DNA of 64,000 nt from Escherichia phage Ec_MI-02. Positions 2,459-43,288 of the stretch are shown here, piece after piece (position 1 is the first letter of the stretch; each line of letters starts with the position of its first letter). Location: the sequence record OP856590.1; one strand, written 5' to 3'. The notes under the pieces are model-generated. The model ran no database searches. It had not been told where the DNA came from and worked only from the letters and a program-made list of their open reading frames with translations. Both the position numbers and the translations under genes were made by a program.

Positions 2459-4275
2459 TACTGGCTCATCCATTCTTTACGAAGGTCAGCATTATCTCCC
2501 ATGAGCATTTCAAAAAGCTCTTTCCAATTCTCAGGAAGTTTAACAACATCATATACCGGGTTTTGAATCATCTCACGATATTCAGATTTTTCCAAAGAGC
2601 CAAGTCCCTTAATATAACGGATGCTATGTTTAGGTAGAGCATCTTTGGCACTCTCATATTCAGCGACTGTATAAAACCATTCTTGTTTTTTACCGACCTG
2701 AGCGATGATTACAGGAGTTTTGACGAAACGAATTCTTCCTTGTTCAAACAGTTCTGGCCAATTACTAAAAAATCCGAGCAGAGAAGGATAAATGCTTCCT
2801 AGACCATCGTGGTCAGCATCGGTCATAATAGCAATATTATGATAATTCAAGTTTTCGGCTTTTTCACCAAGAACTAATCCAGTGATTGCGCAAATATCAA
2901 ACAGTTCTTTGTTTTTAAGCATATCAGCATATGACATACCCCAACTGTTGAGAACTTTACCACGTAATGGATAACCACCGTGAAGTTCTTTATCACGAAC
3001 ATCAATAAGATATCCGATAGCAGAATCACCCTCAGTCAAGAAAAGAGTCGTGTCAGCATCTTTACCACAAAGATTCGCTTTAATATGTTTATGAACCTTA
3101 GCTTTAGAGGCCTTTTTAGCTGCTTTAGTTTCTGCTGCTTTTTCTGCTGCCAATTTACGAGCCAAGGCAGCTTCAATAATTGGCATTAAAATTGCTTCAT
3201 TGTTTAAAATAGCGCGTGAAATCTTTTTAGCATCAAGCTGAATATGACTACGAATTTCACCAAATGGAGAAGTCAAACGCTCTTTAGTCTGAGCATCAAA
3301 TCGCATGTTTTTCATATCACGAACAAACATAACGATAGTCAAACATTCTTTAACACGTGCTTTAGTTACATCAATTTTGAACTTACGTTTGATTTGTGGA
3401 ATAAGGTCTTCACAAATATCATCCATAACACAGTCAATGTGATGACCACCATTCTTAGTATGAATGTTATTGACGTATGTTAATTGACGAAAACCATCCG
3501 GTGAACGACCAACCGCAATAGAACAATTTTCTTGTTCTTGAACAATAGCATGCTCATCATATTGGCGTGCATATTTCTTAAAATTACCCTGAACCTTTTT
3601 ACCGTTAAAGGTAAATTGAATATCAGGATAAACTACTGCAAGTGTCTGGAGACGATCTAGTGTAATGTCAAGATAAACCTGAGATAGCTCATTAGTTTCA
3701 AATGACATAAAATCAGGAATGAAAGTAACACGAGTTCCTTTCCATTTTCCAGGAATATCTTCCCATGATTTATTTTCCATGCCATTTGAACAACGAACTA
3801 CAATATTATTTTGACCGTCGCCAGTTTCACCGACAAACATTACAGAAAAAATGTTAGTTAAACTAGAACCAACACCGTTCATACCGCCAGTGACGCGTTC
3901 TTTATCATCACCGAAGTTACCACCTGCTTTTGGAATAGTCCAGGCAGCAACAGGACCAGGAATTTCTTCGCCGGTAGGTGTTTTAACCATCGCTTGTGGA
4001 ATACCACGACCGTTATCTTCAACTGTTACTTGATTGTTTTTAATAGTAACATTAATTTTATTCGCGAATTTAAACTTAGTACGAATACCTTCATCTACTG
4101 AGTTATCGATAATTTCATCAATAAGCTTAACAAGACCAGGTACATACTGAACACTTTCCCATTTACCAAACAGAAAGCGCTCATGCATTTCATTAGCAGA
4201 AGAGCCAATATACATGCCGCTACGCTTTTTGATATGTTCAATATCGCTCAGAATTTTAATTTCATTCTTAATCAT
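2458..4275 (-). CDS. 39: DNA topoisomerase II large subunit, fused gp39+gp60 (605 aa)
   Basis: GyrB-like ATPase start MIKNEIKILSDIEHIKKRSGMYIGSS; continuous ORF; track start at 4278 is GTG, ATG one codon later. Confidence 0.9.
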   Translation of the reverse strand: MIKNEIKILSDIEHIKKRSGMYIGSSANEMHERFLFGKWESVQYVPGLVKLIDEIIDNSVDEGIRTKFKFANKINVTIKNNQVTVEDNGRGIPQAMVKTPTGEEIPGPVAAWTIPKAGGNFGDDKERVTGGMNGVGSSLTNIFSVMFVGETGDGQNNIVVRCSNGMENKSWEDIPGKWKGTRVTFIPDFMSFETNELSQVYLDITLDRLQTLAVVYPDIQFTFNGKKVQGNFKKYARQYDEHAIVQEQENCSIAVGRSPDGFRQLTYVNNIHTKNGGHHIDCVMDDICEDLIPQIKRKFKIDVTKARVKECLTIVMFVRDMKNMRFDAQTKERLTSPFGEIRSHIQLDAKKISRAILNNEAILMPIIEAALARKLAAEKAAETKAAKKASKAKVHKHIKANLCGKDADTTLFLTEGDSAIGYLIDVRDKELHGGYPLRGKVLNSWGMSYADMLKNKELFDICAITGLVLGEKAENLNYHNIAIMTDADHDGLGSIYPSLLGFFSNWPELFEQGRIRFVKTPVIIAQVGKKQEWFYTVAEYESAKDALPKHSIRYIKGLGSLEKSEYREMIQNPVYDVVKLPENWKELFEMLMGDNADLRKEWMSQ

Positions 4276-16362: not shown

Positions 16363-16433
16363 TATTTTTCCTTTCAATTCATGGGTTAGTAGATTAATTA
16401 TACAATAAATATATAAAGCAATAAGGAGGATAT

Positions 16434-16634: not shown

Positions 16635-17659
16635 ATCTTAGCATATTTAGATAGCCGCATTTTAGCCATCAACCCTTGGGCAATATTATTTTTCATATAT
16701 TCCATAATTTGTTTAGGGGTTGCACCTTCCTTTCTAATCATATCATTAACATCTTTTGATTTCCAGGGAGATTTATCCCAAAACATAACCCTTTCTCCTG
16801 CATCAACTAATTTAGTCATTCGTTTAATAGTGTCAGGGTGACGAGGTTCATTATCTAAAACCCACACACGTCTATCTTTAAATGGAACAATTTCTAGGTC
16901 TAATTGACCGCCCGTAATAGCTATACCATTTTCAATAAAAAGTGAATCTATAGGTCCTTCTAGAACATATACATCACCATCTTTGACTCGTTCAACTCCA
17001 TAAATTTTTGTTGCCTCAGGATAAGCTTTGATGGTGATATATTTTTGAGGAGCATCTTTCTTTAATGCACGTCCTTGAAAAGACTCAGCTTTTCCATTAG
17101 CATTATAAATTGGAATAACAAGACGAGGCTCAGGTATTTCCTTTTTATATGTTCCTGGCGCTATACTATTAACTAATTTAGGCCATTCGGTTGTAAACCA
17201 AAGATATTTCCATTTATCCTTTGGAATACAACGAGCTTTTACATATTTTATAATTGGATGGTCTTCCGCCAATTTATCTAATCTAATGCATGACGGAAGA
17301 GATTTAATTATTTTCTTCTCAGGTTGTTTAGGAAGTTCTTTAGGTTTTTCTACTGGACGACTTTTACCTTTTTCTTTTCTTATTTCAAAGATATATTCAC
17401 GATATAAATCAGGTTCAAACTCCTTTAAATATATTCCGATTGGTGCATGATAGTTACAGTTATAACAATGAATATTTCCTTCATTATTATCGCCATAATA
17501 CCATCCACGGGCTTTATTTTGGTCGGTTTTTGAATCTCCACAAACAGGGCATCTAAACCGTAATTTAAAAGTTGAACTATTATTTACTTGTGCGAATTTA
17601 GGTAAATGAGCTAATGCACGGTATGCAAACTCATTATCAATCCAAGGTATTGATGACAT
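16631..17659 (-). CDS. 61: DNA primase gp61 (342 aa)
   Basis: 342 aa; N-terminal zinc ribbon CPVCGDSK...CYNC; ATG confirmed. Confidence 0.9.
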   Translation of the reverse strand: MSSIPWIDNEFAYRALAHLPKFAQVNNSSTFKLRFRCPVCGDSKTDQNKARGWYYGDNNEGNIHCYNCNYHAPIGIYLKEFEPDLYREYIFEIRKEKGKSRPVEKPKELPKQPEKKIIKSLPSCIRLDKLAEDHPIIKYVKARCIPKDKWKYLWFTTEWPKLVNSIAPGTYKKEIPEPRLVIPIYNANGKAESFQGRALKKDAPQKYITIKAYPEATKIYGVERVKDGDVYVLEGPIDSLFIENGIAITGGQLDLEIVPFKDRRVWVLDNEPRHPDTIKRMTKLVDAGERVMFWDKSPWKSKDVNDMIRKEGATPKQIMEYMKNNIAQGLMAKMRLSKYAKI

Positions 17660-17661
17660 TT

Positions 17662-17826
17662 TTACTCTTCTTTTTCTTTAGATTCCTCTTTTTTCTTTTT
17701 AGGAATCTGTTCAGGACCTTTATTTACTACAGCGCCTGACGTTGTTCCAGTGGAGATATTTTCAGGATTACCACCTGAATCTCCAGCTACCATATCTTCT
17801 TTGATAAATTCTTTATATGTTTTCAT
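17662..17826 (-). CDS. small hypothetical protein (54 aa) with capsid-targeting-like N-terminus
   Basis: not in track; ATG MKTYKEFIKEDMVAG...; directly upstream of gene 61. Confidence 0.4.
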   Translation of the reverse strand: MKTYKEFIKEDMVAGDSGGNPENISTGTTSGAVVNKGPEQIPKKKKEESKEKEE

Positions 17827-21104: not shown

Positions 21105-22278
21105 TAAATTCTTCCATATCACTTAACTGATCTAGGTCAGTTTCTAAATCAGCTGCTGATTTACTTTTACTTTCTGGAGATTTAAATTTTTCAACCTTTG
21201 AGTTAATCAATTCATCAACTTCAGCTTCAACAATTTCATTACTATCAATAGCACCTAACTGATAAGCACGTTTAATAGCATCTCGGAATGGCTGATGCTT
21301 AAATAAAGGACCCCAGAATGTAGTGCAGTTAGTATCTTTTGCACGCCAAGATTTTTCTTCGCGAATCATCTCACCGGTTTCTTCGTCAAGAAATTCACGA
21401 GCATACCAGCCATTTTTAGGTTTTACCACAAATCCTAATTCTAGAGCCATATCTAACAATCCAGAATAAGGATCGATGCCACCGTCAAATTTAACATCAA
21501 TAAAGAATTTACTTTTTTCTTTGACGGTACGAGATTTTTCTACATTTAGAACAAATTGATACCCCTGAAGATCAGAACCATCTTTAATCTGGCGCTTACC
21601 GATAATGAATACGGTATCAGCCGAATACATTACGCCTGTACCACCTGTCATCACGGTTTTACTAAACATTTCAATTGTTTCAATTGTATGGTTAACCGCA
21701 ACGCATGGAATGTTTTTAATACTAAAATAAGGAGTAACAATACGGAATAATGACTTCAGTGATTTAGCACGAGTCATATCTGCCACAGATTTTTCATTCA
21801 AGGCATCTTCCGTTTCTTTCTTAGAAGCCATATTACCGATTGAGTCGATGAATACAATAACTTTTTCACCGCGCTCAATAGCTTCAAGCTGATTCACCAT
21901 ATCAATTTTCAGCTGTTCAACTGACTGGATTGGTGTATGAATTACTCGTTCCGGGTCAACTCCCATGGATCGCAAATAAGCTGGAGTAATACCAAATTCG
22001 CTATCATAGAATAGACATACCGCGTCAGGATATTTGTTCAAATACGCCGCAACCATAGTCAAAGACATATTTGATTTAAAGTGTTTAGAAGGACCTGCAA
22101 AAATGGTTAAACCAGACTGCATACCACCATCAATCGCACCAGAAATAGCGATATTAAGCATTGGGATTTTTGTACGGATTACATCCTTTTCATTAAAGAA
22201 TTTAGATGTAGTCAGTTCAGCAGTCATTTTAGAAGTGGAAGCTTTAATCAAACGGGATTTTAAATCTGCAATAGACAT
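21097..22278 (-). CDS. uvsX: UvsX recombinase (RecA-like, 393 aa)
   Basis: RecA fold motifs; MSIADLKSRLIKASTSK start; ATG confirmed. Confidence 0.95.
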   Translation of the reverse strand: MSIADLKSRLIKASTSKMTAELTTSKFFNEKDVIRTKIPMLNIAISGAIDGGMQSGLTIFAGPSKHFKSNMSLTMVAAYLNKYPDAVCLFYDSEFGITPAYLRSMGVDPERVIHTPIQSVEQLKIDMVNQLEAIERGEKVIVFIDSIGNMASKKETEDALNEKSVADMTRAKSLKSLFRIVTPYFSIKNIPCVAVNHTIETIEMFSKTVMTGGTGVMYSADTVFIIGKRQIKDGSDLQGYQFVLNVEKSRTVKEKSKFFIDVKFDGGIDPYSGLLDMALELGFVVKPKNGWYAREFLDEETGEMIREEKSWRAKDTNCTTFWGPLFKHQPFRDAIKRAYQLGAIDSNEIVEAEVDELINSKVEKFKSPESKSKSAADLETDLDQLSDMEEFNE

Positions 22279-22355
22279 TCATTTTTTCCATAGGCATCAT
22301 TATATTTTCCTCACTGGTTAAAGATAGAGTAATTATAACACAATAAATTTAGGCA

Positions 22356-23198
22356 TTAATCAACTGCTATTGGATGAATAGCATTAAACTTATGAAACGC
22401 TTCTGATTTTTCTTTGCGCGAAACACACATGCGAAGAACCTTTAATGGCTCGTCTTCTTCACCCAACGATTTTCTCTTTTCGATATTCGATGTTTTCCAA
22501 CGAGCTTGCTCTGGAAACTCTCTATTGATTTGCTCAAGAGCTCTATTATGTTTTGAATTACTACGAATTGAACTACACCCGCCAGGAGCTTGTGCTTTTC
22601 CAGATACAACCAGATATTTGAACAAGGCCAAATGCGGATAACCTTGATTAATTAAATTGAGAAATGCATACATATCTTCGCATAAATCAATTTTTCCATA
22701 CCCAATTTGTTCTGTTGTAAGTTTCCCGAGGTCATACCAAGTATTCGTGAATCCATATGAATTTTCACGATAATTACCCCAAGATGAAGTAATTTTAAAA
22801 ATAGGCAGACGAGCATGACCATGATAATACCCGCAATCCATGGCATCTTCAACGTATTGAATCAATTCATAGAACTGTTCACGAGTTAATTGATTAATTT
22901 TATCTACGCAGCGACGATCATCTTTCTTTCGCATTGAACTCATACGAATAGTAGTATCATCATCAATCATCCAAATTCGTTGACCTGCATACATATCAGT
23001 AATTGCTTTACGAGTACCAGCAATTCCGTTAACATCATCAGGAATAGTTATAATTTTAGCTCTAGACCCGTAAGCGTTATAATAAGCTTTTTCTTCGTGT
23101 TCACGTACTACAATATGAGGTTCATAATCAGTCGGAAACATATCAAGGGCAGAAACTGCCCCTACGCGTTGATAGCTTGGAATTACGAATTGAATCAT
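22356..23198 (-). CDS. glycosyltransferase at the beta-gt locus (280 aa), probable HMC-DNA glucosyltransferase
   Basis: between uvsX and 42; WMIDDDT DxD-like motif; not the 351 aa T4 beta-gt; track start GTG, ATG two codons later with ATGA overlap to 42. Confidence 0.6.
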   Translation of the reverse strand: MIQFVIPSYQRVGAVSALDMFPTDYEPHIVVREHEEKAYYNAYGSRAKIITIPDDVNGIAGTRKAITDMYAGQRIWMIDDDTTIRMSSMRKKDDRRCVDKINQLTREQFYELIQYVEDAMDCGYYHGHARLPIFKITSSWGNYRENSYGFTNTWYDLGKLTTEQIGYGKIDLCEDMYAFLNLINQGYPHLALFKYLVVSGKAQAPGGCSSIRSNSKHNRALEQINREFPEQARWKTSNIEKRKSLGEEDEPLKVLRMCVSRKEKSEAFHKFNAIHPIAVD

Positions 23199-23935
23199 TT
23201 CCACTCACCTTTATAATCTTTTTTCACAATATGAGTTTCGCCAGTATTCCACCAATGATCAACCAAGTAAAAATGACGAGAATATACATGAAGACTTCCA
23301 ACATTCCATATAATAGAACCTGCTTTATACTGACGAGTTGAATCGCCTGCATTCAAGTCAGATACTAATTTATCTAGTACGTATTTTTGCCATGCATAAT
23401 CATTACGGAATCCGAAGACCACGTCATTTGAACGCATGCTTACTACTGCATTGACTTTCTTATCACGAATCAGGTACTGCACTGTATTAGTACACATGAA
23501 ATCTGACATACCATCTTTATTGTAGTCAAACTGCATGGATGGACGAGTATAAATCATGATACCACGCCGAGAATCAGGATTTTGACCAAGTTCAGCTAAA
23601 CACATATCATACTGGGCATAGTTATCTTCTGACCAGATGGCCCAACCATAATTCGAGTTAATTTCGCCTTTAGAAGATGCTACCTGCTGCCAAATCTTCG
23701 GTGTTTCACCCGGAATATCTTTAACAAACAAACTTTTAGATTTATACCATTCAAGTTCACGTTGAATGTATTCATCATTAAGAGCGCCAAAAATAAACGG
23801 TTCATCTGCTACAAATGATGCACCAATAATTTCAATAGTTTTAACACCAGTTTTATCAACTACGAAATCTTTTTCTTTTAATGCAAGCCCCAAATGAAGA
23901 CGGATTTCTTCAACTGTCATAGAGTCACTAATCAT
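23195..23935 (-). CDS. 42: dCMP hydroxymethylase gp42 (246 aa)
   Basis: 246 aa; thymidylate-synthase-like fold; ATG confirmed. Confidence 0.9.
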   Translation of the reverse strand: MISDSMTVEEIRLHLGLALKEKDFVVDKTGVKTIEIIGASFVADEPFIFGALNDEYIQRELEWYKSKSLFVKDIPGETPKIWQQVASSKGEINSNYGWAIWSEDNYAQYDMCLAELGQNPDSRRGIMIYTRPSMQFDYNKDGMSDFMCTNTVQYLIRDKKVNAVVSMRSNDVVFGFRNDYAWQKYVLDKLVSDLNAGDSTRQYKAGSIIWNVGSLHVYSRHFYLVDHWWNTGETHIVKKDYKGEWK

Positions 23936-31013: not shown

Positions 31014-32696
31014 TTAAACCATTACAGTAAATCGACCAACTTTCTTCATTTGAAGATGCTGACCATATGCTTGCGGGTCGTGGTCTCTATGTGAAATAAC
31101 AAAAACATTAGTATTTTTTAAACTATCTAAAATAGTTGAAATAGCTTTTACACCTTCAACATCAGTTGCTGAATCAAAAACTTCATCGAGAATTAGTGTG
31201 TTTATTTTAACACCTGAAACTTTTTCAGCAATATCACGCCAAGTAAATAGAAGAGCAATATCAATTCGTGCTTTTTCGCCTTGACTAAATGAAGCATAAC
31301 TAAAATCTTCACGACCGCGGGATTTAATTGTCTCATTAAATTCTTCATCTAATGTAAACACATAATCCGCTTCCATTATTTTAAGATAATGGTTAATCTG
31401 CTTATTAAATAATGGAATGTACTTTTTAATAATAGCACCTTTAATACCAGAATCTTTGAGCATATCAGTCAAAATTCCTCTGTGGTATTTTTCCATTACT
31501 AAATTAGTTTTTGTCTTAACAATTTTATCAAGTTCTTCTTGAAGCAGTGCTATTTCATCAGCATGGTCAATAAACTCGGATGATGCTTTTTCTATAGCTG
31601 CTTTAACTTTTTTAGCTTTATCTACAGTCGTGATTAGAGATTGCTTTTTATTACGAATATCATTCGCCAACGTCTGCTGGGTTTTAATATTATCTCGGTA
31701 TTCATCAACGAGAACTTTTAAATTATCACGATGTGTTGAAAGCTGTTCAAACGAATGCGTGCATTCAGAAACTTTATCTTTAATTTTAGAAACAACTTTA
31801 TCACCGGAACTTAATTGTGACAAACAGGTTGGACATAATCCACCTTCGTGATACATATTAATGACTTTATTATACGAGTCAATTTTTGATTTAATTAAAA
31901 ATGCTTCTTGACCGATTTTATTAAATGCATCAGTCGGGTCTTCATCCAAAACAATATTAACTAATCTTTCATTAGCTTCTTCTATTTCCGATTTTAGCGT
32001 TCTAGCTTCTTTTGCCAAATCATCATACATATTCTGTAGACGAGTAAGGTTATCACCAGTTAATTTTTTCTGGCGTTCAACGTTATCATTATATATTTTA
32101 ATTTGTTGGATAATACTATCTTTTTTAACATCAAGCACTTGGTTTTGTGAATTTAATTCACGTATTAGTGCTTTATTAAGCTTATCCATTTCAGCTAATG
32201 TTCCTACCTCGAGCAGGTCTTCCACAAGCTTTCTTCGTGCAGGGGTCGACAAACCCATGAAAGGGGTATACCCTGCTGTACCAAGGACAACAATCTGCTT
32301 GAAACTGGCATATGACATTCCGATAAGCTGTTCAAATTCTGCTTGGAAATCTTTACTGCTGGCAGATTCATTAAGACGTGTACCGTTAACGGTGATTTCG
32401 AAAACGTTTGGTTTTTGTCCTCTTTTGATATAGTACTTTTTCTCATCATATTCCATCCACAGTTCAACTAAAAGTTCTTTCTTATTTGTGCTGTTTATTA
32501 ATTGACCTTTCTTTACATCACGAAATGGCTTGCCAAAAAGCCCAAATGTGATGGCTTCTAACATAGTAGACTTACCACCGCCATTTCGTCCAGTAATAAG
32601 AGTTTTTTGAACCTTATCTAGTTGAATGTCAATAGGATTTCCACCTACTGACATTATATTTTGATACCTAACTCGGTTTAGTTTAAAATTCTTCAC
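31014..32696 (-). CDS. 46: recombination endonuclease subunit gp46 (SbcC/Rad50-like, 560 aa)
   Basis: Walker A GRNGGGKST; coiled coil; CPTC zinc hook; GTG start codon. Confidence 0.85.
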   Translation of the reverse strand: MKNFKLNRVRYQNIMSVGGNPIDIQLDKVQKTLITGRNGGGKSTMLEAITFGLFGKPFRDVKKGQLINSTNKKELLVELWMEYDEKKYYIKRGQKPNVFEITVNGTRLNESASSKDFQAEFEQLIGMSYASFKQIVVLGTAGYTPFMGLSTPARRKLVEDLLEVGTLAEMDKLNKALIRELNSQNQVLDVKKDSIIQQIKIYNDNVERQKKLTGDNLTRLQNMYDDLAKEARTLKSEIEEANERLVNIVLDEDPTDAFNKIGQEAFLIKSKIDSYNKVINMYHEGGLCPTCLSQLSSGDKVVSKIKDKVSECTHSFEQLSTHRDNLKVLVDEYRDNIKTQQTLANDIRNKKQSLITTVDKAKKVKAAIEKASSEFIDHADEIALLQEELDKIVKTKTNLVMEKYHRGILTDMLKDSGIKGAIIKKYIPLFNKQINHYLKIMEADYVFTLDEEFNETIKSRGREDFSYASFSQGEKARIDIALLFTWRDIAEKVSGVKINTLILDEVFDSATDVEGVKAISTILDSLKNTNVFVISHRDHDPQAYGQHLQMKKVGRFTVMV

Positions 32697-32956: not shown

Positions 32957-33143
32957 TATCTAAAATGTTGAAGTTAAAAGATACAGCCCAGTCAGTGCAG
33001 ACCGTAACCTTTTTAATACAATTATCTTCAACCTCTAGCGGTTCAAACCAATATTCAATAATTTCTTTATGCCCAATATCATCTTTTACTTCGCATTCAA
33101 AATGCTGACTCATCATAACATTTTTAAATTCATCAAAAGTCAT
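32880..33143 (-). CDS. hypothetical protein (87 aa)
   Basis: ATG start; ATGA-type overlap with gene 47. Confidence 0.45.
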   Translation of the reverse strand: MTFDEFKNVMMSQHFECEVKDDIGHKEIIEYWFEPLEVEDNCIKKVTVCTDWAVSFNFNILDNDTPKSLQDMAVSCIKDAYCEVFDI

Positions 33144-34159
33144 TGTGTTGCCTCTACATATAACTGATTTGCATATTGAATAAGTGCTTCGCGATCAGAA
33201 TCAGTGATGTCTGGAATTGCATTAATGTATTCTTCCATCAACGTCTGAAGAGATTGAACTTCAACTTCTTCACTATCATCTGACTCGACAGAGTTATCAA
33301 TCTTTGACACAACTCGTAATGAATGCACAACTTTTTCTAGTTCAGATTCGAACTTCGTTAGATTTTTGTCTACTTCAGTTACTATAACACGTACTGATAG
33401 ATTTGTAAAATCTTTATAGTCAATTTTTCCTTTAAATGGATAATGAATTCTACGATGCCAGGTAGTGTTGTTTGGAATAAATTCCATTCGTTCTGTTTCT
33501 GTATCAAACATCCAGAACCCACGAGGGTCATTCTCGTCACCTGCAGTTAGTGTCCATGGTGTCCCAATATATCTGACGTTAGCAGCCTCAGAAATAGTAT
33601 GGAAGTGACCAGACCACACCTCTTTATAAGTCTTAAGGAAATCAGGTTCAAGACCGTGAGATTTCATTCCTTTATAAAAATAAAATCCATTCAGCTCCCA
33701 GTGACCAACACAAAAAGAAGCAGATGAAGTTTTGATGTGTTCAAGAATTTCACCAGTATTTTCTTCACACATCCAAGGAATTAAATCAATCAAACATCCG
33801 TCAAAATCTACTGTAGTAGGCTTATCATATACTTTAACATTAGGGTATTTAGCCAAAAGCTCAGTAGAAGCATTTGGATGCATTACATTTTTGTAGTGGA
33901 GATCGTGATTTCCTACAATAGTATGTAATGTGATTCCAGCGTCATCAAGCATTTGAACTATTTCACGAGCAAACTCCATAGTTTTATGTGTGATTGCTTT
34001 TCGCACATCAAAAATATCACCATATTGAATCCATACAGTAATTCCATTTTTCTTAGAATATTCTATCGCTTGCTTAATTCCATCAATTTGAATACCGCGA
34101 ATCCACTCATCATCAGCTTTAACGCCTAAATGCCAATCACCCAAGTTTAGTATTTTCAT
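33140..34159 (-). CDS. 47: recombination nuclease subunit gp47 (SbcD/Mre11-like, 339 aa)
   Basis: calcineurin-like phosphoesterase motifs GDWHLG, GNHD; 339 aa. Confidence 0.9.
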   Translation of the reverse strand: MKILNLGDWHLGVKADDEWIRGIQIDGIKQAIEYSKKNGITVWIQYGDIFDVRKAITHKTMEFAREIVQMLDDAGITLHTIVGNHDLHYKNVMHPNASTELLAKYPNVKVYDKPTTVDFDGCLIDLIPWMCEENTGEILEHIKTSSASFCVGHWELNGFYFYKGMKSHGLEPDFLKTYKEVWSGHFHTISEAANVRYIGTPWTLTAGDENDPRGFWMFDTETERMEFIPNNTTWHRRIHYPFKGKIDYKDFTNLSVRVIVTEVDKNLTKFESELEKVVHSLRVVSKIDNSVESDDSEEVEVQSLQTLMEEYINAIPDITDSDREALIQYANQLYVEATQ

Positions 34160-34760
34160 GGTGTCTTTTCCATCCCAATTTAGCTGCTTTTGAAACTAGT
34201 TCTTTAATTTTTCCTTTTGTCCATTCAGGACCAGGAGGTTCATGACATAACATTTGCTTAACTCCGTTATTATACCATTTTTTACCTTTATTATGTGATG
34301 AAGCTTTAAATTTATTTGACCTTCCTTTTACATAACCTTCTGGAATATAAGGTAAAAAGGCAGATTTTCCTGTTAATGGATCATGTGAATGTATATTTCC
34401 TTTACAATTATGAGAACCATATAATGGATGATTTTGTCCTTTATTATCTCTTCCAAATGAACCTTTTGGAGCAGCATATGACATATTAAAGAATAATGGA
34501 TTTTTAACTGCATCGTGCAATCGTTGATAATATAACTCGCATTTAATAGCTTCTTCACGCGTATCAAATTCAGCTAAAATGCATGAATCAAATAAATGAG
34601 GATTATCTGAAAGCTCTTTATTATAAATTTTCTTATACTTTTTAGATAAAACTGACCCATGATATCCAGCTAAATGCCTATCTAAAGATGTAGATCCAAT
34701 ATAAAAAGGAGGAAGTTTATCTCCACTATATATGGTTAAATAAGTTATATATTTTTTCAT
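34137..34760 (-). CDS. GIY-YIG family homing endonuclease-like protein (seg-like, 207 aa)
   Basis: N-terminal TIYSG...FYIGST...R..H...E motif; C-terminal NUMOD3-like GKKWYNNG; overlaps gene 47 start by 23 nt. Confidence 0.65.
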   Translation of the reverse strand: MKKYITYLTIYSGDKLPPFYIGSTSLDRHLAGYHGSVLSKKYKKIYNKELSDNPHLFDSCILAEFDTREEAIKCELYYQRLHDAVKNPLFFNMSYAAPKGSFGRDNKGQNHPLYGSHNCKGNIHSHDPLTGKSAFLPYIPEGYVKGRSNKFKASSHNKGKKWYNNGVKQMLCHEPPGPEWTKGKIKELVSKAAKLGWKRHHENTKLG

Positions 34761-34897
34761 ATATCAAGAACCGTCATTGAAATGCAAAATAAAATTATTG
34801 AAATAAATCCATCTGGAGTGCTAAAGAACCCAATCCAACATGCTCTAGTGAATAGATAAAATGCAAGAAAAAGTATCACATATCCAAGAAATATCAT
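34757..34897 (-). CDS. possible hydrophobic micro-ORF (46 aa)
   Basis: not in track; ATGA overlap with seg-like gene; but its ATG lies inside the -10 of the middle promoter. Confidence 0.2.
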   Translation of the reverse strand: MIFLGYVILFLAFYLFTRACWIGFFSTPDGFISIILFCISMTVLDI

Positions 34898-34920
34898 TAT
34901 ATCAAACTCCGTATAAAGCT
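34896..34920 (-). promoter_or_regulatory. MotA-dependent middle promoter
   Basis: aGCTTTA, 12 nt, TATAAT on minus strand. Confidence 0.5.
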
Positions 34921-34938
34921 AAAGGGCCGAAGCCCTTT
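34921..34938 (-). terminator. GC hairpin with UUCG loop after a-gt
   Basis: AAAGGGC-UUCG-GCCCUUU. Confidence 0.55.
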
Positions 34939-36139
34939 ATTTTGTAATAATGTCAAACTGTTCTTTAAAGCAGAAGCTTGAATCTTGATGTTGATACAAA
35001 AATTCATACGCTTTTTCTCGCTCACGGTCATAAAGAGCTCGGTCAGATGACAGTTCTTTAATACGCTCGAATGTTGATTCCATATCATTTTCATCAAACC
35101 AAACGATACCGCTATCATGCGAAATTAGCGGAGTATTATCAACACGGAATTTTAAATTTTCGCCAGTAGATTTCCAAAATACCGGAATTGTTCCACATGC
35201 ACCAAGCTCGAGATGAGTATATTCTAAAGAACGTTGTAGATATTTTTTATCCAACTTACTCAACTGATAACCAAATCCGGATTTACTCATACGTTCAAGC
35301 ATTTCGCTATTTACATAACGGTCAAGAATTTGCGTTGGCAAATTAGGAGCAATTTTAATTTGGTCTACTTGATGAAGACGATAATATTCGTATGGAATTC
35401 CTTTTTCTTTAATAGGAATGAACGCAGGAGAACGTTCCAGACCTTCCATAATAGTACTTAGCCCAGCAGGTTTAAGATGTTTTTCGTGAAAATCAAACAT
35501 CTGATAAAAACCTTTCCATGTAGTCGTACGACCAATCCAACGGTTGACATTCATATTAATTTCAGAAACATCTTTCCAGTATGTTGATCGAACCTTCGCA
35601 ATATCCATAGGAGGCTGAAAGTTGTATACAGTCGGTGCTTCTTCAATATCATCAAACAGAGAAACTGTTTCTGGATACCATTCTTTCATCAAAACTTTAT
35701 TAAAATCGCCATTATCAGAATGGCTAAAAATAACATCAGCTCGACGAACAGTTTCTTCTAATCCCAAATTTCGGCGCAAAGAAAGAGAAGAATGGTCATG
35801 TTGATAAACTACAACACGAACCGAAGGTTTAATGTTATCAATAATTTTTTTATAGTTATTAATAGTGTCTTCTTCGACTGAAGTAGCAGGAACTGAATTG
35901 ATAATTAGAATATCACAATCATTTACCAGCTTAAGTGTTTTATCGTATTCTTTTGCCAATAAAACCGGAATTGAAAATGATTTATAATCATGCGCGCAAT
36001 TACGGGTAAATGATTTATCTTTAGCATAAACCAAAGTTACTTCATGACCATTTTTAATAAACCAATCACGTTGCTCGAGAGAAAATTTAGTTACGCCGCA
36101 ACCTTCAAGACCTCGAGCCATAAAAATGCATACTTTCAT
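34937..36139 (-). CDS. a-gt: DNA alpha-glucosyltransferase (400 aa)
   Basis: 400 aa; MKVCIFMARGLEGCGVTKFS start; ATG confirmed. Confidence 0.85.
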   Translation of the reverse strand: MKVCIFMARGLEGCGVTKFSLEQRDWFIKNGHEVTLVYAKDKSFTRNCAHDYKSFSIPVLLAKEYDKTLKLVNDCDILIINSVPATSVEEDTINNYKKIIDNIKPSVRVVVYQHDHSSLSLRRNLGLEETVRRADVIFSHSDNGDFNKVLMKEWYPETVSLFDDIEEAPTVYNFQPPMDIAKVRSTYWKDVSEINMNVNRWIGRTTTWKGFYQMFDFHEKHLKPAGLSTIMEGLERSPAFIPIKEKGIPYEYYRLHQVDQIKIAPNLPTQILDRYVNSEMLERMSKSGFGYQLSKLDKKYLQRSLEYTHLELGACGTIPVFWKSTGENLKFRVDNTPLISHDSGIVWFDENDMESTFERIKELSSDRALYDREREKAYEFLYQHQDSSFCFKEQFDIITK

Positions 36140-36163
36140 TTAATATCCTCATTGTTTTGGTTT

Positions 36164-37711: not shown

Positions 37712-37981
37712 TTATCTAAGTAAGCAGTATGCTTGGAACACTTTCTCCATCATCTTTTTAAATTCATGAATATCTATATAATGACTAGTTAAATCAGCAT
37801 GATATAAAAAATCTAAAAACTTTTCATGCGTGCTAACATATTCGCTTTCATTTAATTCAGAAACATGGCTTTCCCAATATCCAACACCAGTCTTATTTGG
37901 GAAAAATGAAATTTTCATATATTGATCAACATAGAAAATGCCATAATTTTCAATAGTAATAGAAATATTAATAAATTTCAT
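37712..37981 (-). CDS. hypothetical protein (89 aa)
   Basis: ORF. Confidence 0.45.
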   Translation of the reverse strand: MKFINISITIENYGIFYVDQYMKISFFPNKTGVGYWESHVSELNESEYVSTHEKFLDFLYHADLTSHYIDIHEFKKMMEKVFQAYCLLR

Positions 37982-38199
37982 GCATTCATCAACTTAGCCG
38001 CTTCAAGAGCTGCATCTAGTGAATCAAACTGGTCAACGTATTCAATCAACTCGCCATAATTAGCGTATAACCACCATTGGCTAAATTCATACTCAAGGAT
38101 GAATCCATTTCCTTCAATTTGAGTTAAGCCAATGCCATTTGTATTTACTTCATATCCGGCAAGACGCAAATCGTTAATAAGAGCTTCGTTCATATTCAT
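37978..38199 (-). CDS. hypothetical protein (73 aa)
   Basis: ORF; ATGA overlap. Confidence 0.45.
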   Translation of the reverse strand: MNMNEALINDLRLAGYEVNTNGIGLTQIEGNGFILEYEFSQWWLYANYGELIEYVDQFDSLDAALEAAKLMNA

Positions 38200-38522
38200 A
38201 CCTTAGCAATTTTCAGGTCAGCAAATTTTTTCTTGCGTTGATTTTTCATACGACGAATAGTTTTATCGGAAATTTCATGCTTTTGATAAGCTTTAGATTC
38301 TACACCAAAAGCTTTAACATCAAATTCTGACAAGATATATTGAACCAACAATTCACGGACAGTATTGCGCCCAATTTTCTGATCATTCTGTTTCATCGTC
38401 TGATGAAGCTCTTTTTCCCATTTATCCAAAATTTGAGGAGTTACAATATCGCCTTTTTCTAGCAAAGAAACTACTTTATCATATGCATAAGAATTGATGG
38501 CGTTTTTAATTTGAATAGTCAT
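38196..38522 (-). CDS. hypothetical protein (108 aa)
   Basis: ORF; terminator upstream. Confidence 0.5.
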   Translation of the reverse strand: MTIQIKNAINSYAYDKVVSLLEKGDIVTPQILDKWEKELHQTMKQNDQKIGRNTVRELLVQYILSEFDVKAFGVESKAYQKHEISDKTIRRMKNQRKKKFADLKIAKV

Positions 38523-38560
38523 ACATTATCCTCAATTACATTAAAATTTTATTATCCAAA

Positions 38561-38577
38561 AAGGGCCGAAGCCCTTA
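38561..38577 (-). terminator. rho-independent terminator
   Basis: AAGGGC-UUCG-GCCCUU followed by UUUUUGG. Confidence 0.55.
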
Positions 38578-38775
38578 GCTAAACTTTTTGGCACCCTTCC
38601 AGCCTTCGTACATCATTGCGGCTGATATTAATATTGCTCCTGAGCAACTTGAATATTTGTGATTCCAAAACCAGTTTAGAAAAATTTCGTCATCAATACC
38701 TTGGGCTATCATATTTTCAAAGAACTGACGACGAGCTTCAGCAATTCGTTGCGATAATTTAGATTCAGGATTCAT
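38575..38775 (-). CDS. hypothetical protein (66 aa)
   Basis: ORF. Confidence 0.45.
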   Translation of the reverse strand: MNPESKLSQRIAEARRQFFENMIAQGIDDEIFLNWFWNHKYSSCSGAILISAAMMYEGWKGAKKFS

Positions 38776-40174: not shown

Positions 40175-40645
40175 TTAATCATGTTTCCACACCCCATCGG
40201 TATTTGACCAAAGTCGCTGATTATCTGATCCTCGCCACAACTTTTTGGTCGGAAGATTTTTCTCATACTTCCCATCAATAATAACATCAACATATTTAAG
40301 CATTTCTAGTTGTTTAATATCTTCAAATTTATATCCTGTCCACAACCAAATGCTTTTATTTGGATAAAGATTTTTTACTGTTTGAACAATGCAATGAATA
40401 ACATCTCGGTTATCAGGATAGAGAGGGTCTCCTCCAGTTATAGTTAATCCTTCTATATAATCATTATTCAAACATTTAATTAATTGTTCCAGCGTTTCAC
40501 CAGTGAATGGAACACCGTTTCTAGCATTCCATGTTGATTTATTATAACACCCTTCGCATTTATGCAAACAACCTGTAACGAAAAGAACAGTTCGGCACCC
40601 AGGACCATTAACAAAGCAACACGGATATATTCTGTCATAATTCAT
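40175..40645 (-). CDS. nrdG: anaerobic ribonucleotide reductase activating protein NrdG (156 aa)
   Basis: radical-SAM cluster CLHKCEGC; 156 aa. Confidence 0.85.
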   Translation of the reverse strand: MNYDRIYPCCFVNGPGCRTVLFVTGCLHKCEGCYNKSTWNARNGVPFTGETLEQLIKCLNNDYIEGLTITGGDPLYPDNRDVIHCIVQTVKNLYPNKSIWLWTGYKFEDIKQLEMLKYVDVIIDGKYEKNLPTKKLWRGSDNQRLWSNTDGVWKHD

Positions 40646-41474
40646 TTATATATTTCCAATTATAGCCTTCAACACTTTTACGTTCGCCATTTAAACATTT
40701 TAAAATATTTCCTTTGCTAGAAATATTAAAATATTTTGCTGCGTCTGGTATATAATTAAATGTTTTTAAAAGAACACCATCTTTGTATGCGCCAAATAAA
40801 TTAAGAGTATATTTTTCTCGAAGACGCTGATGTTTCCTTTTCATAACCTCAGGATTTGCATACGCCAGCTTTAATGAATTTCTATGTTTTTCTTTTACTT
40901 CAGGTTTTTGCATTGCTAACTTAGTTAGCCTGGAAATTTTATTTCTAACTTTATCAGTTTTCATTGCATTTGACAAATTTAATAAAGTTTTATTTCTAAC
41001 TTCAGGTTTTTGCATTGCTAACTTAGTTAGTTCGCTATGTCTTTTTCTAAAATCGTCATCTTTCCATATATTTTTCGATAATTTTGACATAGAGCGGTGA
41101 AATAATTCCCTTTCTTTGGAATACAGTTTAAAAATTTCATCCAATTCATCAGTATTAAATCTATCAGTATTCGAGTTTATCATTCTATGAAAGGCATAAC
41201 ACATTTTACTATTACTTGTTTTAGCTAAATAGTAATGAGCCAATGCATGGTCATAATATGACAAATTAACAATATTCCATTTATCTGTTTTATATTCAGG
41301 AAATATAGATTTGGGAAGCACGTGATGTGCTTCCGTTTTCCCCTTTATTTTAGGATTATTATAATTTTTTATTATCAAATCAACATATGACAATAATAAA
41401 TCATTATTTTCTTCAAATATTAAAGTTAATTTATCATTCACAAAATCACAGGGATAAAATCTATCGTAATTCAT
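40635..41474 (-). CDS. HNH homing endonuclease-like protein (mob-like, 279 aa)
   Basis: HNH motif AHHVLPKS...NIVNLSYYDHALAH; inserted between nrdD and nrdG; N-terminus MNYDRFYPC mimics nrdG start. Confidence 0.7.
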   Translation of the reverse strand: MNYDRFYPCDFVNDKLTLIFEENNDLLLSYVDLIIKNYNNPKIKGKTEAHHVLPKSIFPEYKTDKWNIVNLSYYDHALAHYYLAKTSNSKMCYAFHRMINSNTDRFNTDELDEIFKLYSKERELFHRSMSKLSKNIWKDDDFRKRHSELTKLAMQKPEVRNKTLLNLSNAMKTDKVRNKISRLTKLAMQKPEVKEKHRNSLKLAYANPEVMKRKHQRLREKYTLNLFGAYKDGVLLKTFNYIPDAAKYFNISSKGNILKCLNGERKSVEGYNWKYINEL

Positions 41475-43288
41475 TGGTGTTTAACCCTATGCATGATTTC
41501 TTTATTTTTTCCAAGATTAAATCCGCGTTCATTCGGATTTCCCAAATAACCACATGTTCTTCTTATTGTGTTCATCTTTTTAGGATCAGTTTCTCCACAA
41601 ATAGAACAAACAAACCCGTTTTCAGTAGGAGTCATTTCATGGGTACTTCCACACGTAAAACATTTATCTACTGGCATGTTAACACCAAAATAATCTAAAT
41701 GTTGTGCAGCATAATCCCATACAGCCTCAAGACCTTTTAGGTTATTTTTCATATCAGGAAGTTCAACATAAGAAATGTGACCACCTGTCGCAATGAAATG
41801 ATATGGTGCTTCGCGAGAAATCTTTTCAAACGGAGTGATATTTTCTTCTACTGAAACATGGAAACTGTTAGTGTACCATCCTTTATCAGTAACATCTTTT
41901 ACACTTCCATATTTTTCAGTATCAAGTTTACAGAAGCGATAACAAAGGTTTTCAGCAGGTGTAGAATACAAACTAAAAGCAAAACCGGTTCTTTCAGTCC
42001 ACTGCTTAAGACGAGCATTCATTTTAGTTAAAATTTCTTGTCCAATATCACGACCGACAAGAATATTCAATTCGTGAATACCAATGTATCCCAAAGACAC
42101 TGAACTTCTACCGTTTTTAAATAACTCAATTATATCATCATCGGGTTTAAGACGAACCCCGAATGCACCTTCTTGGTAAAGAATAGGAGCAACAGTCGCT
42201 TTAACTCCTTTTAAAGAATTAATTCTACACATCAAAGCTTCAAAGCATAAATCCATTCGCTCATTGAACAATTCGGCAAATTTTTGTTCATTGAACTGTG
42301 TTCCAATATAAGAATCTAACGCAATGCGAGGAAGATTCAGTGTTACAACACCAAGATTATTACGTCCATCAAGAATTTCATTACCAGTCGAATCTTTCCA
42401 TACGCTCAAGAAACTACGGCAACCCATTGGAGAAACAGGAATAGATGAACCGGTGATAGCTTTATTGTTCTTAGCTGAAATAATATCAGGATACATTCTT
42501 TTGCTTGCACATTCTAGAGCAAGCTGCTTAATATCATAGTTCGGATCGTCTTTATAAAGATTAACGCCTTCTTCAACAAACATAACAAGCTTAGGGAAAA
42601 TAGGAGTTATCCCATCGCGACCAAGACCTTTAATACGATTTTTCAGAATTGCTTTCTGAATCATTCGTTCAGTCCAGTCAGTTCCCGTACCAAATGTAAT
42701 TGTTACAAAAGGCGTTTGTCCGTTTGAACTAAAGAGAGTATTTACTTCATATTCATAAGCTTGGAATGCATCGTATACGTCTTTTTCTGTTTTAGATTGG
42801 GCATAATTCAACGCATCAGCGATTTGCCATTTTTCTGCGTCCTCAATATGTTTTGCATAGGTGCGTTTAACATAAGGAGAAAGTACTTTATCTACATTCG
42901 CAAAAGTCGTTCCACCGTATTGGTGAGAAGCAACCTGTGCAGTAATTTGTGCCATAATTGCAGTAGCGACGCCGATTGATTTAGGAGTTTCAATCTGCGC
43001 ATTACCGAGCTTAAATCCGTTCTCAAGCATTCCTTTTAAATCTACTAAACAGCAATTAGTAAATGGAAGAGCAGGGGAATAATCAATATCGTGGAAATGG
43101 ATAATTCCGCTTTCATGCGCTTTCATAATAAAAGACGGGACCATATTTTTGGCAATGTGTTTAGACACAATACCGGCCATAAGGTCCCGTTGAGTTGGAA
43201 AAACACGAGAATCTTTATTAGCATTCTCGTTCAAAAGGTCTTTATTAGTTTTATGAATCAATCCTTCAATTTCTTTTTCAATTGTCAT
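41471..43288 (-). CDS. nrdD: anaerobic ribonucleoside-triphosphate reductase NrdD (605 aa), intronless
   Basis: 605 aa contiguous ORF; C-terminal glycyl radical and zinc ribbon (CFTCGS...CSICG). Confidence 0.95.
   Translation of the reverse strand: MTIEKEIEGLIHKTNKDLLNENANKDSRVFPTQRDLMAGIVSKHIAKNMVPSFIMKAHESGIIHFHDIDYSPALPFTNCCLVDLKGMLENGFKLGNAQIETPKSIGVATAIMAQITAQVASHQYGGTTFANVDKVLSPYVKRTYAKHIEDAEKWQIADALNYAQSKTEKDVYDAFQAYEYEVNTLFSSNGQTPFVTITFGTGTDWTERMIQKAILKNRIKGLGRDGITPIFPKLVMFVEEGVNLYKDDPNYDIKQLALECASKRMYPDIISAKNNKAITGSSIPVSPMGCRSFLSVWKDSTGNEILDGRNNLGVVTLNLPRIALDSYIGTQFNEQKFAELFNERMDLCFEALMCRINSLKGVKATVAPILYQEGAFGVRLKPDDDIIELFKNGRSSVSLGYIGIHELNILVGRDIGQEILTKMNARLKQWTERTGFAFSLYSTPAENLCYRFCKLDTEKYGSVKDVTDKGWYTNSFHVSVEENITPFEKISREAPYHFIATGGHISYVELPDMKNNLKGLEAVWDYAAQHLDYFGVNMPVDKCFTCGSTHEMTPTENGFVCSICGETDPKKMNTIRRTCGYLGNPNERGFNLGKNKEIMHRVKHQ

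Follow-up and report, generated by a model that had tools for sequence, protein, structure and literature searches.

T4-like phages are a model system for free-standing homing endonucleases and, to our knowledge, the set that has been tested consists of the SegA-G and Mob genes of T4 plus a few others. For SegF and SegG, cleavage sites and conversion tracts have been mapped experimentally (reviewed in PMC2988022). Here, we describe a putative member of this group in Escherichia phage Ec_MI-02 (sequence record OP856590.1), in a stretch of 64,000 nucleotides (nt), hereafter the window, which forms the left end of the genome of this Tequatrovirus (T4-like phage) and is collinear with T4 from rIIA onward at ~90-97% identity. 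A 207-amino acid (aa) open reading frame (ORF) located between genes 47.1 and 47, which we refer to as seg, is very likely a free-standing gene for a functional homing endonuclease of the Seg type known from T4, with a C-terminal DNA-binding region that is not NUMOD3. A literature search returned no published description of, and no cleavage or homing data for, a homing endonuclease gene at the 47.1/47 junction.

A first-pass annotation of the window, made from the sequence alone, had placed a 207-aa ORF between a-gt and gene 47, overlapping the latter by 23 nt, and had read it as a GIY-YIG endonuclease of the seg kind on the basis of the strings TIYSG and FYIGST, together with GKKWYNNG. The ORF and its overlap are as described and all three strings occur in the translation. 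This ORF lies far beyond chance since it has 170 homologues at E ≤ 1e-3 in a database search (best 3e-140), matches PHROG 10820 (E = 1e-94) and shows ratios of non-synonymous to synonymous substitution rates (dN/dS) of 0.0-0.23. It also matches phrog_314 'homing endonuclease' (5e-18) and is under purifying selection, dN/dS being 0.10-0.23 relative to orthologues in other genera and 0.0-0.06 within Tequatrovirus, where dS is up to 0.15. The sole Pfam match of the protein is GIY-YIG (PF01541, E = 3e-4, 21.4 bits), which is matched at E ≤ 0.01 by 15 of the 42 homologues (out of 170) that were aligned in order to score residue conservation; one of these 42 relatives matches SegE_GIY-YIG, and an NCBIfam search with the protein gave no meaningful match. 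In the alignment, Y33, G35, S39, L56, F57, A71, E75 and N92 are invariant, while Y7, T9, Y11, G13, Y20, I21, G22, S23, K40 and R68 are nearly so. The two signature motifs correspond to T9-I10-Y11 and Y20-I21-G22, in which conservation is 90% or higher for Y11, Y20, I21 and G22. An AlphaFold2 model based on the same alignment (mean predicted local distance difference test score, pLDDT, of 85.7) places these motifs on β-strands 4-11 and 19-25, and its top Foldseek matches in the PDB are the catalytic domain of I-TevI (1LN0/1MK0, probability 0.99), i.e. the predicted structure has the α/β fold of GIY-YIG nucleases. E75 falls on E75 of I-TevI in an hhalign comparison, a weak alignment (E = 0.24) that is useful for the register of this residue alone, and N92 falls on N90 of I-TevI in a MAFFT alignment with I-TevI and T4 SegA, SegB, SegC and SegF, in which the invariant GYHGS is matched by GYMGSG in the T4 Seg proteins. 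The assignment to GIY-YIG endonucleases of the seg kind is thus borne out by the motifs, by Glu75 and Asn92 and by the fold match to I-TevI.

The same cannot be said of the C-terminal half, in which GKKWYNNG had been taken for a NUMOD3-like repeat. Pfam detects no NUMOD3 in the whole protein at E ≤ 1 and no family of any kind on residues 101-207 or 151-207 at E ≤ 10, nor is there any Pfam-detectable NUMOD, zinc finger or helix-turn-helix in the 207 residues. NUMOD3 (PF07460) is matched by 18 of the 42 relatives (e.g. P0030-P0044, P0048, P0064 and a Yersinia phage TG1 protein named 'GIY-YIG homing endonuclease'), which are more distant, have different C-termini and share with the window protein only residues 1-115, over which they are 45-71% identical. 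Since these NUMOD3-bearing relatives match residues 1-115 while their C-termini differ, DNA-binding domains look to have been swapped on a common catalytic domain across the family. What the C-terminal half of Seg does contain is two units consisting of a β-hairpin followed by P-[EP]-[GE]-[YW]-x-K-G, namely NIHSHDPLTGKSAFLPYIPEGYVKG and KKWYNNGVKQMLCHEPPGPEWTKGK (residues 122-148 and 160-184), and a closing helix (186-203). A degenerate 'G-x-N-H-P-L-Y-G-S-H' motif resembles the start of a NUMOD3 repeat, and the first unit recalls the C-terminal tail of SegB from T4, with which it shares an 'IHS..(n)..IPEG[WY].KGR' element. The model of this half has no significant structural neighbour; a weak likeness to AP2/ERF seen with the whole chain was not reproduced and was set aside.

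How seg is embedded between its neighbours gives an idea of how it may have arrived. When aligned with T4, the window has 601 extra nt between gene 47.1 and gene 47, bounded by a 7-nt direct repeat, ATGAAAA. The left copy, which is now the start of seg, keeps the upstream context that T4 gives gene 47, including the ATGA overlap with 47.1. Insertion would therefore seem to have taken over the original ATGAAAA start context of gene 47 and its ATGA coupling to 47.1, while the 3′ end of the element would have supplied a new ATGAAAA for gene 47, which would explain why the seg ORF extends 23 nt into that gene. Indeed, seg lacks its own stop codon and is terminated by a TGA of gene 47 that is not in the frame of that gene, and the last residues of the protein (H-E-N-T-K-L-G) are encoded by the first codons of gene 47 in another frame. 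Tequatrovirus Seg proteins start with MKKY and the orthologues in other genera with MKY, a difference compatible with a joint formed at the common ATGAAA. No Shine-Dalgarno sequence precedes the seg ATG, and that of gene 47 has a weak GGA alone, 11-13 nt upstream. As neither start has a good Shine-Dalgarno sequence, translation of Seg probably depends on 47.1 and that of gene 47 on seg, forming a chain of dependence from 47.1 through seg to gene 47.

Comparison of the gene 47/a-gt junction across relatives, which the first-pass annotation had suggested, reveals seg to be optional. The whole region is held by 68 of the 521 phage records that match the flanks (~13% of Tequatrovirus records), a split match was seen in seven of ~54 Tequatrovirus records in a spread sample, and empty sites were read in 16 + 3 phages. 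That annotation had also named a lack of the catalytic Arg/Glu, combined with a locus identical in all relatives, as grounds for dropping its reading. The reading withstands this check, since Glu75 and Asn92 do not vary among the relatives aligned and the locus is polymorphic. Identity to the seg ORF is at least 95% in 68 records and 60-80% in another 61, which belong to other Straboviridae, and the window protein is 100% identical to the majority allele (at least 50 records at ≥ 99% identity). Orthologues with 60-80% aa identity sit beside gene 47 in other lineages as well, overlapping its start by 23 nt in SEA1 (Gelderlandvirus), 17 nt in Klebsiella phage SmallBear and 14 nt in QL01 (Dhakavirus), and separated from it by a 121-nt gap in LC53 (Winklervirus). 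Because the upstream gene differs between these four phages, the constant partner of seg is the start of gene 47. In SEA1 (L031, ~1240-1300), LC53 (L033) and QL01 (L034), the seg ATG lies exactly 6 nt past the -10 element of a promoter consisting of a hairpin and a MotA box; with the spacing known from T4, transcription would begin on the first base of this ATG and yield a leaderless seg mRNA. Among the Gelderlandvirus records matched, a single one covers 80% or more of the SEA1 locus, and in the seg-less Salmonella phage Melville (L035, 713-1042) the slot held by seg in SEA1 is occupied by an unrelated 109-aa ORF with its own promoter and leader, i.e. the slot upstream of gene 47 is variable in Gelderlandvirus too. 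A scan of IMG/VR for junction diversity by pattern returned seven loci, all seven seg-less. Damaged copies of seg also occur. In GEP001 (L024), an otherwise verified genome in which a shorter coding sequence is annotated, a nonsense mutation at codon 183 precedes the terminal helix, possibly an early step of decay. The gene is frameshifted in ESh16 and ERS-1 and incomplete in KNP1 and KNP5; an internal deletion in the latter two was considered and set aside on account of runs of N in unverified records.

Linked to seg is a block of silent changes in gene 47. Codons 3-6 read ATA CTA AAC TTG in the window and ATT TTA AAT TTA in T4, all four differences being synonymous and confined to 10 nt, 2-11 nt from the junction, while the neighbouring ~100 nt are identical to T4. 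The former sequence was found in 8/8 seg+ loci first read and the latter in 16/16 seg- loci, including a divergent one. Searches with chimeric probes subsequently brought out exceptions: the block is present in 67 of the 68 seg+ records and in eight phages among the ~440 seg- records (SHFML-26, BCPEco_001, BCPSen_003, Ec_YwIITB1, PBM-1, UGKSEcP1, UGKSEcP2 and EPIMAM01), in all of which 47.1 is coupled directly to gene 47. The T4-type site is present in ~424 records and RB14 has an intermediate allele. UGKSEcP2 joins the block to a T6-type haplotype from +35 onward, which points to recombination within ~20 nt of the block. Sites that are occupied, empty and susceptible, or empty and altered fit the cycle of a homing endonuclease gene, and the altered empty ones could have arisen if the element was lost precisely between the two ATGAAAA repeats, or if conversion took place without transfer. 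A second cluster of differences from T4, at 34033-34036 (gene 47 nt 123-126, TGTA vs ACCC, changing ITTW to ITVW in gp47), is found in all seg+ loci but also in the seg-less SG1 and is not strictly linked to seg.

We give target-site immunity as the meaning of the silent block about an even chance, because proximity to the junction produces linkage anyway and a small effect on RNA structure is conceivable. It could equally well be that the four changes have nothing to do with immunity and are hitch-hiking markers of the genome of origin, or an adjustment of mRNA structure at the gene 47 start. At 2-11 nt from the junction, the block would be co-converted with the insert and remain linked to it whatever its function; moreover, in a seg+ context, pairing between the T4-type codons (AAATTTAG) and CTAAATT at the 3′ end of seg could enclose the ATG of gene 47, and opening positions -15 to +15 of this gene is predicted to cost 6.3 kcal/mol with T4-type codons vs 5.5 kcal/mol with the window's own. 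In addition, these codons do not differ between SEA1 (seg+) and Melville (seg-). However, a folding difference of 0.8 kcal/mol is small, four synonymous changes within 10 nt are conspicuous amid ~100 nt identical to T4, and the exact sequence of the block occurs in none of the four orthologous loci of other genera/lineages, which leaves it with no identified donor. Besides, any site lying across the junction has its upstream half replaced by the insertion itself.

The mechanism that we propose is modelled on that of SegA-G. In a mixed infection with a seg-less relative (e.g. T4), the enzyme would cleave the unoccupied allele close to or at the junction of 47.1 and 47, and repair by recombination with the seg+ genome would transfer seg along with the neighbouring codons of gene 47. 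The silent changes in codons 3-6 would either protect the carrier's own site or be co-converted markers. In a bolder version, which we put forward tentatively and consider rather doubtful as a whole, the enzyme would recognise the first codons of gene 47 through an unprofiled module of unsolved fold, the silent block would be a selected immunity allele, and the eight seg-less carriers would be resistant survivors or products of precise loss. If true, the invade, immunise and lose cycle of a homing endonuclease gene would be complete in sequenced natural isolates.

Several points weigh against Seg being an active and mobile nuclease with the block as its immunity determinant. Nuclease activity, cleavage site and homing are all predicted from likeness to the Seg proteins. 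The GIY-YIG score of 21.4 bits is below the Pfam gathering score of 22.6, although this is a borderline profile score rather than a failed structural feature, and searches of PDB sequences, with the protein or with a profile of 42 sequences, found no nuclease. The canonical Arg (R27 in I-TevI) varies across this family: the window protein has R at position 28, the orthologues at the gene 47 locus have R or K and distant relatives N or K, and MAFFT aligns this segment with 'TDDL/TENL/TSNL' of SegA/B/C, which have no basic residue there. Nevertheless, T4 Seg enzymes lacking that basic residue are active endonucleases, so the variable Arg need not count against activity; the nearly invariant K40 and R68 could act as substitutes. 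As regards immunity, the block need not mean it, being linked to the insert by proximity anyway; the seg-bearing ERS-1 has T4-type codons, and the first codons of gene 47 are identical in SEA1 (seg+) and Melville (seg-). The SEA1/Melville comparison is uninformative because Melville has a different gene and leader upstream, and ERS-1, an 'UNVERIFIED_ORG' record with several frameshifts that may be a mixed assembly, was discounted as weak evidence for a seg+ genome with a T4-type site. Finally, occupation of one locus in five genera/lineages with saturated dS could mean that seg is a retained useful gene.

This last point leads to the view that seg is a domesticated nuclease, not currently mobile, which we regard as unlikely. 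The benefit to the phage might lie in excluding the 47/46 alleles of co-infecting relatives, in stimulating recombination near these Mre11/Rad50-like genes, or in the dependence of gene 47 translation on seg. Purifying selection is strong and dS is saturated between genera, while dS of up to 0.15 within Tequatrovirus argues against a very recent sweep; in addition, gene 47 now starts inside the seg ORF without a good Shine-Dalgarno sequence of its own. However, a gene retained for its usefulness sits uneasily with its presence in ~13% of Tequatrovirus records and with the single Gelderlandvirus record mentioned above. Seg-less phages including T4 are fully viable, and since eight of them carry the block, the element is dispensable in that background at no obvious cost. 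A competitive benefit and homing are, furthermore, not mutually exclusive. It is very improbable that seg is instead the decaying remnant of a once-active element, as the damaged copies in GEP001, ESh16, ERS-1, KNP1 and KNP5 might suggest: the window copy is intact, is the majority allele, has all the residues conserved in the family and evolves within Tequatrovirus at the low dN/dS given above, whereas the frameshifted or incomplete copies may be sequencing artefacts since they come from records that bear an UNVERIFIED flag or include stretches of N. We find it hardly credible that the protein is an HNH endonuclease, as it is called in many RefSeq records (RefSeq/PGAP) and in the description of PHROG 10820. 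It has no match to a Pfam family of the HNH type, GIY-YIG being the only one matched, its structural neighbours are GIY-YIG nucleases and its C-terminal model has none that is significant; other depositors use 'putative homing endonuclease', and related proteins are named 'GIY-YIG homing endonuclease'. The RefSeq/PHROG label is wrong and should read GIY-YIG (Seg-like) homing endonuclease.

Table 1. Position of seg, its parts and its neighbours in the window
Feature	Position	Strand	Remark
Gene 46	31014-32696	minus	
46.1 + 46.2	between gene 46 and gene 47	minus	
Gene 47, SbcD/Mre11-like recombination nuclease subunit	33140-34159	minus	element attached to the gene 47 5′ end in every genus examined
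seg, 207-aa ORF with ATG start, predicted free-standing Seg-type GIY-YIG homing endonuclease gene	34137-34760	minus	from the ORF list
C-terminal presumed DNA-binding region, ~residues 105-207	34140-34448	minus	
GIY-YIG catalytic domain, ~residues 1-100 (TIY 9-11, YIG 20-22, GYHGS 32-36, Glu75, Asn92)	34461-34760	minus	
Overlap of seg 3′ end and gene 47 start, 23 nt	34137-34159	minus	
Four synonymous differences, gene 47 codons 3-6	34142-34151	minus	candidate target-site immunity or co-converted marker
ATGAAAA, right copy, gene 47 start	34153-34159	minus	from alignment with T4
ATGAAAA, left copy, seg start	34754-34760	minus	from alignment with T4
Gene 47.1, 46-aa hydrophobic ORF	34757-34897	minus	annotated in T4 (NP_813808) as predicted membrane protein
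Middle promoter P47: MotA box TTTAGCTTTA, 12-nt spacer, -10 TATAAT	34889-34923	minus	
Hairpin AAAGGGCTTCGGCCCTTT, 8-bp GC-rich stem, UUCG loop	34921-34938	minus	directly after the a-gt stop
a-gt	34937-36139	minus	

The short ORF on which translation of Seg probably depends is, judging by its sequence, T4 gene 47.1, a real conserved gene. The DNA from the a-gt stop through the end of 47.1 is identical to T4, in which 47.1 (46 aa) occupies the same place and is ATGA-coupled to gene 47, while in the window it is coupled to seg. It matches phrog_6693 (E = 1.5e-31), its aa sequence is identical in 16 of the 18 Tequatroviruses sampled, and comparison with a divergent homologue on an IMG/VR contig (L011) gives a dS of 1.3 and a dN/dS of 0.11. 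The hairpin found upstream by a terminator scan has a folding energy of -15.7 kcal/mol (z = -2.2), shares 3 nt with the MotA box and corresponds to a 'terminator' feature annotated in the fPS-90 record. The MotA box (34923-34914), its spacer and TATAAT (34901-34896) constitute the sole such match on the minus strand of 33900-35300, a region with neither a late-promoter core nor a second MotA-like site for seg. A table of identified middle promoters places the start of P47 at T4 36576 (PMC2988021), which is window 34889. This position lies 7 nt past the -10 hexamer, with the first base of the 47.1 ATG 8 nt upstream of it. By sequence identity, the upstream promoter is thus the T4 middle promoter P47, its dependence on MotA/AsiA in Ec_MI-02 being presumed, and the hairpin and MotA-box promoter that the first-pass annotation had reported are both present. 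From P47, and by read-through from a-gt, seg would be transcribed together with genes 47 and 46.

The first-pass annotation had also noticed the 46-aa ORF, its ATGA coupling to the 207-aa ORF and the position of its ATG within the -10 element, and had doubted its expression for this reason. The coupling is present and the ATG (34897-34895) does overlap the last two bases of the hexamer, and because the P47 start maps 8 nt inside 47.1, the transcript from this promoter indeed lacks the ATG. Doubting expression altogether, however, is not warranted for a conserved T4 gene with a GGAG Shine-Dalgarno sequence (at -13 to -10, 9 nt upstream of the ATG and inside the promoter spacer), which can be used together with the ATG on transcripts reading through the hairpin from a-gt. 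On the P47 transcript, translation might start at the in-frame GTG at codon 7. Seg expression might furthermore be kept low by relying on coupling to 47.1, whose ATG is missing from this transcript. On the L011 contig (IMGVR_UViG_2706795408_000001), the 47.1 homologue (47 aa) is ATGA-coupled to gene 47, and a MotA-type promoter is followed by a GAGGAG Shine-Dalgarno sequence and then by the ATG. As L011 keeps the promoter upstream of both, the overlap between promoter and ATG in Tequatrovirus would be a derived compaction.

The window differs from T4 elsewhere too. Between nrdG and nrdD, where T4 has mobC, lies a 279-aa ORF (40635-41474, minus strand) with an HNH-like motif (EAHHVLPKS...YYDHALAHYY) and helical repeats, whose start, MNYDRFYPC, copies the N-terminus of the adjacent nrdG product, MNYDRIYPC. 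From its sequence, this is a duplicated gene start at a homing endonuclease insertion, much like ATGAAAA at seg/47. T4 mobB, an HNH homing endonuclease gene beside a-gt (T4 37818-38678), is absent, a-gt.2 following almost directly after a-gt (window 36140-36155); a-gt thus has seg beside it in one phage and mobB in another. The insertion region of gene 60/mobA (T4 2794-3910) is missing at window 2794-2857, the I-TevII intron in nrdD is absent (window 42750-42753) and the dam region (T4 16826-17724) is apparently missing at window 16402-16423. Finally, segA and b-gt are replaced by a 282-aa ORF (22356-23204; region 22267-23212), possibly another glucosyltransferase.

The seg gene at the 47.1/47 junction adds an uncharacterised predicted specificity to what is an ordinary kind of element in T4-like phages. 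It is common in sequenced coliphages (~68 records), some of them E. coli K-12 phages from the BASEL collection (e.g. FriedrichMiescher), and the natural existence of empty, empty-but-altered and occupied alleles makes both cleavage specificity and immunity testable with existing isolates. It also neatly illustrates how an insertion can appropriate one translational coupling while providing an essential gene with a new one. As for annotation, the small ORF upstream should be named 47.1.

Among well-characterised enzymes, I-TevI, to the catalytic domain of which Seg is ~17-21% identical in sequence, is encoded in an intron and combines a zinc-finger linker, a NUMOD3-type helix and a helix-turn-helix, while window seg is not in an intron. 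The NUMOD3-bearing relatives have the N-terminal domain in common with Seg, but their C-termini match PF07460 and that of Seg does not. The T4 seg genes are a close parallel. Like window seg, they are free-standing, tightly packed between phage genes (segF overlaps gene 56) and present in some and absent from other close relatives, and their products also combine a GIY-YIG N-terminal domain with a G-Y-[MH]-G-S motif and lack the segment that bears R27 in I-TevI. In sequence features, the closest T4 proteins are SegB, SegA and SegC, although similarity over the whole protein is absent in a comparison with SegA, SegB, SegC and SegF (phmmer ≤ 8 bits; SegD, SegE and SegG left out) and there is no T4 record among the tblastn matches listed at E ≤ 1e-3. 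Unlike SegA-G, window seg occupies the 47.1/47 junction, a locus at which T4 carries no such gene. Further precedents are the marker exclusion systems of SegG with gene 32 and SegF with gene 56, in which, as here, an endonuclease gene lies beside an essential gene of replication or recombination whose allele differences travel along with it; the counterpart of their mapped conversion tracts is, for window seg, a population-level linkage of the four-substitution block, with exceptions.

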